A DNA stretch of 64,000 nt from Rickettsiales bacterium (lineage in GTDB: Bacteria > Pseudomonadota > Alphaproteobacteria > Methylaequorales > Methylaequoraceae): NCBI GenBank assembly GCA_002691145.1, contig NZHE01000026.1, forward strand, positions 15,678 to 79,677, written 5' to 3'. This document shows positions 2,163-48,900 of the stretch, piece by piece (the first letter of the stretch is position 1; every line of letters starts with the position of its first letter). A program made the translations under genes and the position numbers. The notes beneath the pieces were generated by a model. It did not search any database. It saw only the letters and a list, made by a program, of their open reading frames with translations, and had not been told where the DNA came from.

Positions 2163-3779
2163 ATGAATTTAGAAAATCTTGATTGGTTAATTATAAGCGG
2201 ATATTTGATTTTTCTAATATTATTGTCTTTTAAATTATCAAAAAATCAAAAAAATTCAAAAGATTATTTTATTGCATCAAGAAAACAAAACTCAAAGAGT
2301 TTAGCAGTATCTATTTTAGCTACTCAATGTTCAACAAATAGTATTTTAGGGGCGCCAGCATTTGTGGCTTTCTCAATTGGTGGAGGATTGAGTTGGCTTC
2401 AGTATGAATTGGCAGTACCTTTATCGATGATTGCTATTATGATTTTCTTGTTCCCGATTTTTTATAAACTAAAGCTTATTTCAATATACGAATTTCTGGA
2501 AAAAAGATTTGATCTTAAAACTAAATTATTAATGAGTATGTTATTTCTTTTTATTCGTGTTTTTGCAACAGGCGTCATTGTTTATAGCGTATCCATAATC
2601 GTAGAGCTCATTTCAGGTTTAAGCTTTATTTATTCGGTTTTAATTTTAGGTATGATAACGATTATTTATGACGTCCTGGGTGGTATAAAAGCCATTATTT
2701 ACAGTGATATAATTCAAATGATAATTTTGACCTCAGTACTCTCTGGGATATTTCTTTATTTAATTAATATTTTTGGTGGATTTAGCTCAATGTTTGATTT
2801 TTTTCCTGCAGAAAGAAATATTAAAATTAATTTTTCTGATCATGGCTTTGGTGATGGAAATGAATTTGCTTTTTGGCCAATGCTCATAGGTGGTTTTTTT
2901 TTATATGTTTCTTATTACGGCTGTGATCAGAGTCAAATGCAAAAAGGGTTATGCGCTAAAAATCAAAATGAAGGTCAAAAAGTTTTTTTTTTAAATGGAA
3001 TTTTGAGATTTCCAATTGTACTTCTTTATTGCTTTATTGGAGTTGGCATAGGTTCTTATGCTGTTTTAGATTCAAGCTTTATTTCTAGTCTTCCTTTACA
3101 AAATGGAAAACCAAATTTTAATTTAGCAGTACCGGTTTTTCTTATGGAAAATTTACCAACGGGAATCTTAGGATTAACGCTTGTAGCTTTATTTTCTGCT
3201 GCAATGTCATCTTTAGATTCTGTACTCAATAGTTTGTCGGCAGTAACAATTGAGGATTTTATTAAAAGAAAAAAGGGTTTTAGTAGTTATTCAGAAAGAA
3301 AAATTCTTTTTATTTCCAGAGCTGTTACATTATTTTGGGGTATGTTAGCTATCGTTTTGGCTTTTTATGTTGAAAATGTTTCAAATAATGTGCTTATTGC
3401 TATTAATAAAATTGGTTCTCTAATTAATGGACCAATAGTTGGTGTTTTTTTATTAGGTATATTTACAAAAAAAATTAACGGTACAAGTGCCTGCATAGGA
3501 GTTGTAGGAGGATTCATATGTAATCTTTATTTTTGGATTTATGTTGAGAGTGTATCTTGGCTTTGGTGGAATGTAATAGGTTTAATCGTTACATTTAAGA
3601 TTGCAGTAATTTATTATTATTTTTTTTGTGGTAAAAAACTTTGCAATAATAATGTATGGTCATTAAATTCATTTAAGAAATTGGGCTTTAATAGTGAATG
3701 GGAAGTTAGGTATATTATTTTATTTGTTTGGTTTATCCTTATATTTATTTTAATTTATAGTCTCAAAAATATTTTTTAA
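2163..3779 (+). CDS. sodium:solute symporter (SSS) family transporter with extra C-terminal TM segments
   Basis: 538-aa polytopic protein; the N-terminal two thirds fit the SSS family (PutP/SglT-like) pattern. Confidence 0.7.
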   Translation: MNLENLDWLIISGYLIFLILLSFKLSKNQKNSKDYFIASRKQNSKSLAVSILATQCSTNSILGAPAFVAFSIGGGLSWLQYELAVPLSMIAIMIFLFPIFYKLKLISIYEFLEKRFDLKTKLLMSMLFLFIRVFATGVIVYSVSIIVELISGLSFIYSVLILGMITIIYDVLGGIKAIIYSDIIQMIILTSVLSGIFLYLINIFGGFSSMFDFFPAERNIKINFSDHGFGDGNEFAFWPMLIGGFFLYVSYYGCDQSQMQKGLCAKNQNEGQKVFFLNGILRFPIVLLYCFIGVGIGSYAVLDSSFISSLPLQNGKPNFNLAVPVFLMENLPTGILGLTLVALFSAAMSSLDSVLNSLSAVTIEDFIKRKKGFSSYSERKILFISRAVTLFWGMLAIVLAFYVENVSNNVLIAINKIGSLINGPIVGVFLLGIFTKKINGTSACIGVVGGFICNLYFWIYVESVSWLWWNVIGLIVTFKIAVIYYYFFCGKKLCNNNVWSLNSFKKLGFNSEWEVRYIILFVWFILIFILIYSLKNIF

Positions 3780-4311
3780 ATTATTGTTTTTAAATATTTT
3801 TTTTGTAGTTATTTTAATAAAATTAAAAGATATTAGATTTCGCATGTTTTAAACATCTGTAACAAAAAATTTTTAAAATAGTATTTTTGATGCTACGTAA
3901 AATTTAGTAAAAAAGAGGAAATTATAATATAATTTGTGTCGATAATGTTAAAAATATTGCAATGAGTTCCTATGCTCTTTGGAATGGTAGTGATGTTTCC
4001 AAGTTGAAATAAAGCAAGTTTCTTCACAAATAAAGATTATTAGATAGATCTAAAAATTATAGATAACAAAAAAAAAATAATTTAAGAATATATATATATA
4101 TTTTAAAAATTTAAGGTTTAGTGTATCTAATTTAAATTTTTATTTAAAATCTTTACTTCTTAAGTACAAAAAAATTAATTGAATAAATTAATAGTGATTC
4201 AAAATCAAAAAAATATTTAACTTAATTAATATAAAATGAATATAGCTGTCAGACTTTTTTAACTTTGGTGTGTTAAATAATATATAATTTTAATTTTTTA
4301 AAGGACAAAAA

Positions 4312-4389
4312 ATGGCTTGGACAAAACCAATAATTTCTGAAATCTCTGTAGGTCTTGAAATCAATTCTTATGCTTGCGCTGAGAAGTAA
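4312..4389 (+). CDS. pqqA: PqqA-like peptide (coenzyme PQQ precursor family), 25 aa, stand-alone
   Basis: ATG at 4312 preceded by an AAAGGAC RBS. Translation MAWTKPIISEISVGLEINSYACAEK* is near-identical in pattern to alphaproteobacterial PqqA (e.g. Gluconobacter MAWNTPKVTEIPLGAEINSYVCGEKK) and includes the conserved Glu-X3-Tyr (E16/Y20). Followed by a strong hairpin terminator. Confidence 0.6.
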   Translation: MAWTKPIISEISVGLEINSYACAEK

Positions 4390-4416
4390 CTTCAAACTGT
4401 AAATCAATTTCTTTTG

Positions 4417-4448
4417 AAAAGCCTGACCAAGTAGTCAGGCTTTTTTTT
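4417..4448. terminator. bidirectional rho-independent terminator between pqqA-like (+) and cobS (-)
   Basis: AAAA-GCCTGAC-caagta-GTCAGGC-TTTTTTTT: a perfect 7-bp GC-rich stem flanked by an A-run and a T-run, so it works on both strands. Confidence 0.65.
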
Positions 4449-4466
4449 GTCTGAAGTAATTTATTT

Positions 4467-5243
4467 TTAAATTCCAATTACCACTGTATTACCGATTAGA
4501 AATGTGAGTTCTGTAAGAAAAGCAATTGCTCCTAAAATATCACCTGTAATACCTCCCAAAACTTTTTTTGCCTTTATTCCTAAAATTAAAATGACTGATA
4601 TTGTGAAAATAATTCCAAAAAAAACACCTAAAAATGGAAATATTAATAAAGTTGGTAAAGCCCATATTAAACATGCGCAAACTAATTGTTTATGTGAAAC
4701 TTTACCAACTATACTGCCTATTTTCGCAAATTTTGAATGCTTAAAAAAATTTCTTGTAAATATTATTGCTAACTTTCCTGAAGCAAATGCTATTGACAAA
4801 ATCGACACCAAAGAATACCCACTTTCTACCAAAGCTTGAATTAAAGCAAGTCTAAAAAGTAATCCTAAAATTATTGCTACCACTCCATAAGTTCCTAAAC
4901 GACTATCATGTATAATTTTATTTATTTTTTCTGGAGAACCGCCAGCACCTAAACCATCAGCTGAATCTGCCAAGCCATCCTCATGAAAAGCTCCAGTTAA
5001 AAGTACGCTTATAGTTATAGAAATCACACAAGATAAAAATATAGACTGTTCTAAATAAATAAACAAATCACCAATTAATCCTGCTATTAATCCTATTAAT
5101 AGACCTACCAGTGGAAATGACCACGCTGCTTGTGTAAGATCTGGTGGTTTATTCGAAAAATAAGACCAATTAACTGGTATTCTGGTAAAAAACATAACAG
5201 ATGCTATAATGTCTAATAAGTATTTATTTTTTAACAATAACAT
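4467..5243 (-). CDS. cobS: adenosylcobinamide-GDP ribazoletransferase (cobalamin 5'-phosphate synthase)
   Basis: 258-aa polytopic protein MLLLKNKYLLDIIASVMFFTRIPVNW...; typical CobS N-terminus and length. Confidence 0.85.
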   Translation of the reverse strand: MLLLKNKYLLDIIASVMFFTRIPVNWSYFSNKPPDLTQAAWSFPLVGLLIGLIAGLIGDLFIYLEQSIFLSCVISITISVLLTGAFHEDGLADSADGLGAGGSPEKINKIIHDSRLGTYGVVAIILGLLFRLALIQALVESGYSLVSILSIAFASGKLAIIFTRNFFKHSKFAKIGSIVGKVSHKQLVCACLIWALPTLLIFPFLGVFFGIIFTISVILILGIKAKKVLGGITGDILGAIAFLTELTFLIGNTVVIGI

Positions 5244-13596: not shown

Positions 13597-14835
13597 TTAA
13601 TTTACCCATCTTTTAGATAAAAGTTTTGTTCCCTCTTTTATACCAAGAGGAGTTAATGGAACCATTCTATTTGAAAAAATTTTTTTTATAATGCTTATCG
13701 ATTCAGTTATTTGCCATTTATTTTCTGGAACGGGATTTATCCATAAACTAGAGGACCATTTTGAAAGGGCTCTACTCAACCAAAATTTTCCGGATTCTTG
13801 GTTATAATGTTCATTACTAGCTCCGGGCATCAATATCTCGTAAGGACTCATAGAGGCATCACCAACAAAAATACATTTAAAATCTTTACCATAAGTTCTT
13901 ATAATTTCATTTGTAGAAGATCTTTCGCTCCATCTTCTTTTATTATCTTTCCAAACACCCTCGTACAGACAATTATGAAAATAAAAGTATTCTAAATTTT
14001 TAAAAACACTTTTAGCGGCAAAAAATAAACTCTCAACTTTTTTTATATGATCATCCATTGAGCCACCAACATCTAAAAAGAGAATAACTTTTAAAGAATT
14101 TTCTTTTTGTTTTTGTTTTTTTATATCTAAATAACCATTTTTAGCAGAAAAATTAATAGTATTTTTAATGTCAATCTCTTCTTCTATGCTTGTTCTAGCC
14201 CATTGTCGCAAATGTTTTAAGGAAACTTGTAAACCCCTAGAGTTTAATTGTTTTGAATCATCGAAATCTTTGAATCTTCTTTTGTCCCATGTCTTTAAAG
14301 CCTTTCGATGTCTGCTTTCACTTTGTCCGATCCTAATTCCCATTGGATTATAACCATAAGCACCGAATTGTGAGGTTCCAGAAGTTCCTATCCATTTATT
14401 TCCACCTTCATGTCTTTTTTTTTGTTCTTCAAGTCTTTTTTTAAATTTTTCCATAAGTTTCTTGAAACCACCGGAGGACTTTATTTTTAACATTTCTTCT
14501 TTAGAAAATTCCTTCTCAAATAACTTTTCTATCCAATGATTAGGAATACTAAAAAATTTAGCAACATCTTCAAATTGGATCTTTTCGATAGACTTAAAGT
14601 GTTCACCAAAAATAACATCAAACTTATCTATCAGGTTTTCATTTTTTATTAACGTAGTTCTGGTTAAAAAGTAAAATTCTTCAATATCATATTGAATAAA
14701 ATTTAACTGTAATGCTTTTAATAAAGTTAAATATTCATTCAGAGAAACCGGCAAATTTGAAGCTTTTAACTTTATAAAAAATTCTAAGAACATTAAATCA
14801 ATCGTTATTTCTTGACATAAATGCCAATTGCTCAA
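13597..14835 (-). CDS. von Willebrand factor A (VWA) domain protein, CoxE-like partner of the MoxR ATPase
   Basis: 412 aa; VILFLDVGGSMDD (MIDAS-type DxSxS) and the C-terminal VWA fold fit the CoxE/COG3552 architecture. The track start is a TTG; the biological start is probably the ATG ~42 nt downstream (MFLEF...). Confidence 0.75.
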   Translation of the reverse strand: MSNWHLCQEITIDLMFLEFFIKLKASNLPVSLNEYLTLLKALQLNFIQYDIEEFYFLTRTTLIKNENLIDKFDVIFGEHFKSIEKIQFEDVAKFFSIPNHWIEKLFEKEFSKEEMLKIKSSGGFKKLMEKFKKRLEEQKKRHEGGNKWIGTSGTSQFGAYGYNPMGIRIGQSESRHRKALKTWDKRRFKDFDDSKQLNSRGLQVSLKHLRQWARTSIEEEIDIKNTINFSAKNGYLDIKKQKQKENSLKVILFLDVGGSMDDHIKKVESLFFAAKSVFKNLEYFYFHNCLYEGVWKDNKRRWSERSSTNEIIRTYGKDFKCIFVGDASMSPYEILMPGASNEHYNQESGKFWLSRALSKWSSSLWINPVPENKWQITESISIIKKIFSNRMVPLTPLGIKEGTKLLSKRWVN

Positions 14836-46239: not shown

Positions 46240-48164
<1,925 letters not shown>

Positions 48165-48166
48165 AA

Positions 48167-48900
48167 TTATTTATTATCTTTTTCGAAAAATATAATCAAC
48201 AAAATAGCAAATTCATAAAATAAATATAAAGGAAGAGATATTACTAACTGTGAAATTACATCAGGAGGTGTAAGTACCGCACTAAATAGTAAAATTAAAA
48301 TAAAAAAAATCTTTCTTTGTTTTTTTAGAATTTTTACTGTCAAAATATTAATTTTACATAATGTCATTAAAATTATTGGAAATAAAAAAGAAACACCACC
48401 AGAAAATAACAAATACATTGTTAGTTTCATATATTCACCGTACCTAGATTCCAATTCAATAGAAAAAAAATTCTCTGTATTTAAAGTCTGAAACGAAAGA
48501 AAAAAATTCCAAACTATAGGAATTAAAATAAAATAAGAAAATAGTACTCCTAAAAAAAAAAAGAAAAGGTATTAAGCAAAATATAGGTAAAAAGAATTTT
48601 TTTTCCTTTTTATATAAAGCAGGAGAAATAAAAAGGAAAAATTGTAATACCAAAATTGGAAAAGTTGTCAAAAATGAGGCGAAAAAAGATATTTTAAGAT
48701 TTGAAATAAATACTTCTGGCAAACCAGTAAAAATCATCCTTGTTTGTTCACTATTTTCGAGTATTTTATATAGTGGTAAGGATAAAATTTTTGCAACAAT
48801 GTCTGCTATATAAAAATAAAAAAAAAAAACTAACAAAAAATATAAAAAAACAAAATAAAAGTCTATTTCTTAGCTCTGCAAAATGACTTAGATAACTCAT
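48167..48900 (-). CDS. tatC: twin-arginine translocase subunit TatC, interrupted by two 1-nt frameshifts (T8 run at plus ~48463-48470 and T11 run at plus ~48818-48828)
   Basis: Three pieces: an unlisted N-terminus MSYLSHFAELRNRLLFCFFIFFVSFFF (HL.ELR.RL motif) plus track ORFs 48456-48836 and 48167-48454 (LTPPDVISQ motif). Removing one T at each run restores a ~243-aa TatC. Its ATG overlaps the tatB stop (ATGA). Confidence 0.8.

Follow-up and report, generated by a model that had tools for sequence, protein, structure and literature searches.

The pqqA gene studied here lies at positions 4312–4389 on the plus strand of the window, the whole 64-kb stretch of DNA that was analysed, and comprises an ATG start, 25 codons and a stop codon encoding the peptide MAWTKPIISEISVGLEINSYACAEK. 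The sequence-only reading had ascribed the full PqqA signature to this peptide, and searches with both family HMMs bore this out. The NCBIfam PqqA equivalog TIGR02107 matched the peptide at 38.9 bits (E 5.3e-10; cut-off 20 bits) over profile positions 1–21 of 21, and Pfam PF08042 matched it at 34.3 bits (cut-off 21.1 bits) over positions 1–19 of 19. The peptide has 25 residues, compared with about 20–40 residues in the family, and carries the Glu-X3-Tyr cross-link pair as E16-I-N-S-Y20, with the Glu16 codon at 4357–4359 and the Tyr20 codon at 4369–4371 on the plus strand. Its leader motif, W3-T-K-P6, is the same as in the operon-linked copies of relatives; the W-x-K-P region is the type of N-terminal leader that PqqD binds. 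When the peptide was searched against PDB sequences, there was no match. Judged by the HMM scores, the 25-codon gene is a bona fide pqqA.

The gene also possesses expression signals of its own, and the ribosome-binding site and terminator that had been claimed for it were both confirmed. Direct reading of the sequence placed a Shine-Dalgarno (SD) motif, AAGGA, at 4301–4305 on the plus strand, 6 nt 5′ of the ATG, and AAGGA(G) stands at the same position in 80 distinct aligned pqqA upstream regions among the matches listed. A sigma-70-like promoter candidate, TTAACT-18 nt-TATAAT (4259–4288, plus strand), ends 23 nt before the start codon and had the top score of the promoter scan with 10 of 12 matches; because promoter-like sites are no more numerous in this AT-rich stretch than expected by chance, this is an argument from placement and not proof. 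On the 3′ side, an intrinsic terminator at 4416–4448 (plus strand) is formed by a 12-pair GC-rich hairpin (4416–4445; −17.2 kcal/mol, z = −3.5) and a following T run, and the terminator scan returned 2 terminator-like sites where 0.1 was expected. An equivalent hairpin was found 3′ of every examined pqqA copy, orphan or operon-linked. As an A run lies on the 5′ side of the hairpin, the terminator may also serve the convergent cobS. The HMM scores, together with the promoter-like site, the SD and the terminator, therefore identify a self-contained, genuine pqqA.

Upstream of the gene, the 530-bp spacer (3780–4311) proved to be as free of genes as the sequence-only reading had described it, with no ORF longer than 44 aa and no gene remnant by blastx or blastn against all related loci, the pqqA-proximal element being the sole part shared with these loci. 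An Rfam scan of the whole window at gathering thresholds matched tRNAs alone, and a scan of 3700–4500 at E values up to 1 gave only sub-threshold chance matches, with no riboswitch or sRNA in the spacer. The upstream neighbour is an SSF transporter gene (2163–3779, plus strand), and the downstream neighbour is cobS (4467–5243, minus strand). The statement that neighbouring genes run on the opposite strand thus holds for cobS, which is convergent with pqqA, but not for the transporter gene, which lies on the same strand.

Duplication and conservation of the pqqA cassette

A second pqqA, flanked by a PhyH gene and a DUF6279 gene, is located at positions 2779–2856 of the single-cell (SAG) contig L018. 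It lies outside the window, 9.8 kb leftward of the window copy and about 5.5 kb beyond window position 1, and is present on all six same-species contigs as well as on L018. The two genes encode identical peptides and differ at 6 synonymous and 0 non-synonymous positions. The second copy has its own SD (AAAGGAG), upstream element and hairpin terminator, and the flanks beyond the cassette are unrelated to those of the window copy, so that the genome holds two cassettes 9.8 kb apart, each with SD, element and terminator. By sequence comparison, pqqA is duplicated in this species and its peptide is under strong purifying selection.

The two copies form direct repeats that bracket a 9.8-kb segment with genes for DUF6279, SDR, DEAD helicase, WD40, CobW, DUF1289, a hypothetical protein and SSF. 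Relatives such as L080 and L024 carry one pqqA, located between DUF6279 and cobS, an indication that a rearrangement or duplication took place in the window species. Two pqqA copies were also found on a 9.5-kb metagenome contig (L077), with Met at residue 7 in one and Thr in the other.

Conservation of the gene across the clade was assayed by scanning metagenome DNA with the back-translated pattern MAWTKPxxxEIxxGxEINxY, which retrieved at least 119 loci. About 95 of those among the matches listed are of low GC (0.24–0.36) and encode MAWTKP[M/T/I/K/V/Q]ISEISVGLEINSYACAEK, and these low-GC loci comprise 73 distinct DNA sequences among the matches listed. Over the 11 pattern-free codons of these 73 sequences, pS was 0.295 and pN 0.0055, giving a pN/pS of 0.018 among the matches listed; the check proposed for the gene had been conservation of the ORF across the clade with dN/dS below 1. 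The invariance of Glu16 and Tyr20 among the retrieved loci is not evidence, because the search pattern demanded both residues. Residue 7 (codon 4330–4332) is the one freely variable position and the remaining residues are almost invariant: in 75 distinct sequences (L023–L141, among the matches listed) it is Met in 50, Thr in 16, Ile in 5, Lys in 2, Val in 1 and Gln in 1.

Codon choice in pqqA departs from that of the genome. At Ile11 and Ile17, ATC is used in 62–63 of 75 sequences among the matches listed, versus 9% of the Ile codons in window genes, and at Tyr20, TAC is used in 57 of 75 among the matches listed, versus 22% in window genes. The genome-rare codons favoured by pqqA are ATC, TAC, TGC and CTT and, towards the 3′ end, GAG and AAG. 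This bias relative to the genome suggests that expression or the mRNA itself is under selection, a hint of the translational or mRNA-level selection typical of highly expressed genes.

The scan also retrieved loci of high GC (0.55–0.71), for example L023, L035, L036, L045, L048, L051, L114 and L117, which encode a longer PqqA type, such as MAWTKPVIREIECGMEINMYGPEHDDGVLF. Downstream of these are pqqBCDE-like ORFs, judged by ORF sizes alone.

The phased-repeat element upstream of pqqA

Within the spacer, a phased-repeat element was identified at 4225–4263 on the plus strand, with the arrangement ATTAAT-N5-ATGAAT-N6-GTCAGA-N4-TTTAAC and hexamer starts about 11 nt apart. The same element occurs at L018 2680–2722, upstream of the second copy, at L142 7775–7815, and at about 110 further loci among the matches listed. 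Its clade consensus consists of four hexamers with about 11-nt phasing, ATTAAC/ATGAAT – ATGAAT – (C/A)TCAGA – (A/T)TTAAG, and the distance from TCAG to the ATG is 58–71 nt in orphan copies and 79–86 nt in operon copies. A strict regular expression of the element, TGAA[TC].{6,8}TCAG.{6,8}TTAA, was run on both strands of 1.56 Mb and gave 117 matches, 114 of which had a pqqA start no more than 120 nt downstream (loci among the matches listed); the window contains one match, at 4237–4262. The element is exact in 70 of 82 low-GC pqqA copies, most of the others having one mismatch (among the matches listed), and the strict expression matched at none of the 23 high-GC PqqA loci among the matches listed.

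A mini-ORF of 8 codons, MNIAVRLF and stop, reads through this region in the orphan copies, and it was considered and rejected as a leader peptide, its frame ending after 3 codons in the operon copies. The broken frame in the operon copies, together with the fact that the conserved bases fall on third codon positions, argues that the element is a DNA motif rather than a leader ORF. Co-regulation of pqqA with xoxF through this element was likewise rejected, as it is absent 5′ of xoxF in L142 and L155.

Phased direct repeats reaching a promoter are typical of OmpR/PhoB-type activator sites. From its layout, the element is a candidate response-regulator or promoter-proximal site. In a more novel reading, this clade-specific element would be the operator of an undescribed regulator that sets PQQ supply. 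If the operator reading were true, it would concern the control of PQQ supply in what are possibly the ocean's most active methanol oxidisers. The element offers a concrete handle on the regulation of PQQ synthesis in the clade and is the most original by-product of this analysis. Since the element is common to orphan and operon-linked copies, the orphans and the operon-linked genes belong to one system, in which the orphans are complete, regulated cassettes rather than stray ORFs.

Pathway genes in the window and in relatives

The sequence-only reading had reported no pqqBCDE genes in the 64 kb, and this was confirmed by Pfam scans of essentially all ORFs of at least 90 aa, supplemented with precomputed Pfam annotation of identical contigs, which revealed no PqqB, PqqC, PqqD or PqqE, no radical-SAM protein and no PQQ-dehydrogenase in the window. 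The result extended to flanks of about 8 kb on the left and about 9 kb on the right, which contained no pqqBCDE or quinoprotein genes, so that about 82 kb of the genome was covered. Precursor use in other radical-SAM/RiPP chemistry had been put forward for the peptide; this found no footing near the gene, as no match to PF04055, PF13186 or PF05402 (radical-SAM and RRE/PqqD-like maturase families) was present in window or flank ORFs of at least 90 aa.

The neighbourhood of the pqqA copies, in window positions 1–25000 and the flanks on L001 and L018, is metal-related, with genes for a CobW GTPase, DUF1826 and DUF1289, an HMA-domain protein, a TonB-dependent receptor, MoxR-like AAA and VWA proteins, Fur, a DUF3299/FtsX/ABC transporter and an ArsP_2 exporter.

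The host was placed by its closest relatives. The window has a GC content of about 28% and matches 125-kb Tara Oceans scaffolds at 99.8–99.9% identity and a contig of the SAG GCA_902525415.1 at 99.6%; a second SAG, GCA_902615335.1, holds exact copies of its SSB and PCMT proteins. It encodes a TonB-dependent receptor, CobS/CobT, CobW and Fur, besides further metal-related genes. The species-level relatives traced through its CobS (61–69% identity) are GORG SAGs named 'SAR116 cluster alpha proteobacterium' and the 'Rickettsiales bacterium' MAGs MED652 and SP101, and the closest named relatives of its GyrA (75–76% identity) are 'Rickettsiales bacterium' MAGs. By these relationships, the host is an uncultured low-GC marine alphaproteobacterium of a clade labelled 'SAR116 cluster' or 'Rickettsiales bacterium'. 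The proposal of a SAR11-type genome was not upheld, as the CobS and GyrA relatives bear these two labels and never that of Pelagibacter. A contig with a CobS 65% identical to that of the window (L009, NYVP01000145.1) is filed as 'MAG: Verrucomicrobiales bacterium CPC300', which is probably a binning or labelling error.

In relatives, the same peptide family was found at the head of the PQQ biosynthesis operon. Clustering of the flanks of low-GC loci distinguished more than 10 pqqA contexts among the matches listed. At 19 of the 76 decidable low-GC loci, pqqA stands directly 5′ of pqqB-pqqC-pqqD-pqqE, and at the other 57 it stands alone, about three orphans per operon (all among the matches listed). 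In one such operon (L032), Pfam identified the genes after pqqA as encoding a 310-aa Lactamase_B_2 protein, a 261-aa TENA/PqqC protein, PqqD and a 381-aa radical-SAM/SPASM protein. The PqqE of this locus belongs to a single cluster at 90% identity, with 1273 members under the name 'PqqE [Rickettsiales bacterium]', and the next match has only 74% identity. Three variants from this cluster were traced to hundreds of marine contigs as well as to several SAGs and to long-read contigs reaching 866 kb in length. The two SAGs of the window species, GCA_902525415.1 and GCA_902615335.1, were not among the matches listed for the three variants. Sufficiently long pqqABCDE loci share a recurrent order, in which a PQQ-dependent-catabolism beta-propeller protein and an ABC transporter are encoded upstream, followed by pqqA-B-C-D-E, then, convergently, by genes for a xoxJ-like protein, a cytochrome c and a 607–610-aa PQQ dehydrogenase, and then by SoxYZ and H4MPT/methanofuran-type genes.

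The MAG 'Rickettsiales bacterium' SP101 (GCA_002711625.1) shows this arrangement on contig PARR01000022.1 (L142), where pqqABCDE adjoins xoxF-xoxG-xoxJ, the neighbours encoding a MoxJ-like protein, a cytochrome c, a PQQ dehydrogenase of the methanol/ethanol family and H4MPT-linked proteins. NCBIfam scores exceeded the equivalog cut-offs for PqqB (378.8 versus 245), PqqC (338.3 versus 240), PqqD (76.2 versus 46) and PqqE (573.2 versus 381), and the quinoprotein matched TIGR03075 at 664.5 (cut-off 480). A further contig of SP101, PARR01000009.1 (L012), has homologues of many genes in the left 16 kb of the window at about 70% nucleotide identity, among them those for the TonB receptor, MoxR/VWA, SSF, CobT/CobS and DUF1826. 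L012 also bears a decayed extra pqqA (14327–14404, minus strand), reading MACTKTTISEISVGLEINS*AYAKK, with the changes W3C, P6T and Tyr20 to stop and with a degraded upstream element and terminator; it shares the Thr7 codon ACG with the operon pqqA of SP101. The shared genes of L012 and the operon of L142 therefore show that a relative with gene content in common with the window has the full pathway and a dead spare copy.

The operon-linked PqqA of the clade, as in SP101 (L142 7883–7960) and on the SAG contigs L155 and L159, has the same length as the window peptide and differs only at residue 7, which is Ile in the window copy and Thr or Met in the operon-linked copies. These genes share with the window copy the same SD, the phased-repeat element and a GC-rich hairpin 3′ of the stop codon; unlike it, they carry one more hairpin, about 20 nt long, located between repeat element and SD. 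The operon-linked copies are followed by pqqB-C-D-E with xoxFGJ adjoining, whereas the window copy is followed by the convergent cobS, and the nearest 70 kb or so contain no pathway gene.

A probable spare pqqA and the competing explanations

As the full PQQ pathway is found next to a methanol dehydrogenase in close relatives, an ordinary spare pqqA is the most likely explanation, and we regard it as very likely that the window gene is a spare cassette feeding the clade's canonical PQQ pathway for an XoxF-type dehydrogenase. The suggestion of an orphan gene in a PQQ-less lineage is not supported, in view of the 19 of 76 loci among the matches listed, and of SP101, in which the same peptide family heads pqqBCDE. 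The sequence-only reading had itself named a complete pqq operon elsewhere as what would make the gene an ordinary spare copy; such an operon is present in the clade and in SP101, and for the genome of the window itself we infer that pqqBCDE is carried elsewhere.

In this explanation, the genome would hold at least two extra self-contained pqqA cassettes, each made up of repeat element, promoter, SD, 25-codon ORF and terminator, and the source of PQQ in the clade would be the canonical pqqA-B-C-D-E operon adjoining the XoxF-type methanol/ethanol dehydrogenase system. Following established PQQ biochemistry, PqqD would bind the PqqA peptide through its N-terminal leader, the radical-SAM enzyme PqqE would cross-link Glu16 to Tyr20, and the cross-linked product would be trimmed before PqqB and PqqC complete PQQ. 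Because one peptide is used per PQQ molecule, extra copies would enlarge or diversify the pool of precursor available for a quinoprotein dehydrogenase that is highly expressed.

That the species has no pqqBCDE at all, its two PqqA peptides being substrates of another maturase, decoy or regulatory peptides, or products passed to neighbours, is unlikely. It would agree with the lack of pqqB-E, radical-SAM and PqqD-like RRE genes in the roughly 82 kb inspected and with the state of both copies, which are intact and under selection, so that something uses them. However, those 82 kb are a small fraction of the genome, a single variable residue separates the peptide from the operon-linked PqqA of relatives, the specific upstream element is common to the operon-linked copies, and SP101, one relative with both loci, has the full pathway. 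Moreover, no alternative maturase was found beside the more than 10 orphan pqqA contexts among the matches listed, in which part of the ORFs were annotated. In its more specific form, in which the species has lost or never had pqqBCDE and its two conserved, regulated cassettes serve a maturase, signalling or an exchange with PQQ-making neighbours, this account is quite unlikely. An orphan peptide with new chemistry would be noteworthy, but what the evidence favours is an ordinary spare pqqA.

It is very unlikely that the window gene is a relic, that is, a duplicated pqqA no longer needed and heading for decay as in SP101. The decayed SP101 copy, with its three damaged residues and degraded upstream motif, gives this account a precedent, and a cobS-adjacent pqqA was not found in several representatives of related species; these absences and the SP101 pseudogene indicate that extra copies are dispensable in some lineages. 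Against it, both copies of the window species keep the start codon, SD, element, terminator and full peptide and differ by synonymous changes only, the orphan copies of the clade have the low pN/pS given above (0.018, among the matches listed), and codon choice in pqqA is strongly unlike genome usage, as in the preference for ATC (62–63 of 75 sequences, among the matches listed, versus 9%). A chance PqqA-like ORF, for which only the short length of 25 codons and the position inside a long AT-rich spacer could speak, is extremely improbable and was refuted by the PF08042 and TIGR02107 scores (E-value 5e-10, with full-length profile coverage) and by the conservation of 73 distinct DNA sequences (among the matches listed) with almost exclusively synonymous variation across the clade.

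The spare-cassette explanation also accords with known systems. Multiple pqqA copies have been described in Methylophilaceae, with 3–12 copies and one pqqBCDE (PMC4109929), in Methylorubrum extorquens AM1, with extra pqqA homologues, and Methylovorus MP688, with multiple copies (PMC6520949), and in Beijerinckiaceae RH AL1, with three copies (10.1101/2023.03.06.530795). These methylotrophs combine dispersed stand-alone copies and a single pqqBCDE with highly expressed PQQ methanol dehydrogenases (PMC4109929, PMC6520949, 10.1101/2023.03.06.530795). The window host differs from them in being an uncultured, streamlined marine alphaproteobacterium of about 28% GC, and the copies of its species, at least 2 in number, encode near-identical peptides and carry the clade-specific repeat element. 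Canonical PqqA (TIGR02107/PF08042) and the window peptide are alike in the W-x-K-P leader, the E-X3-Y pair and a size of 20–30 aa; in Klebsiella and Gluconobacter the canonical gene heads pqqABCDE(F), whereas the window copy does not stand at an operon head. The window pqqA is thus very probably another case of the known class of spare pqqA genes in PQQ-dependent, methylotroph-like bacteria.

What the case adds is an abundant, uncultured, genome-streamlined clade with about three dispersed pqqA cassettes per pqqBCDE operon among the matches listed, a copy number consistent with precursor supply mattering for oceanic methanol oxidation. Among the xoxF5 genes of the surface ocean, those with the highest expression belong to the 'Clade X' Tara MAGs, formerly 'Rickettsiales', whose xoxF5 dominates the PQQ-dehydrogenase transcripts there (PMC11996626). 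The clade of the window fits this description and may be 'Clade X'. Gene callers overlook pqqA genes of 78 nt, and PQQ capacity is therefore easily mis-scored in such genomes.

Two other genes of the window are disrupted: tatC (48167–48900, minus strand) is broken into at least two ORFs and has T10–T12 runs inside it, and serS (47019–47040, minus strand) stops 45 codons short of its version on the Tara scaffold. In serS, the two sequences differ in length by 1 nt within a T11/T12 homopolymer, the window being otherwise 99.92% identical to the scaffold, and the breaks in both genes are probably homopolymer-length assembly errors rather than pseudogenes.
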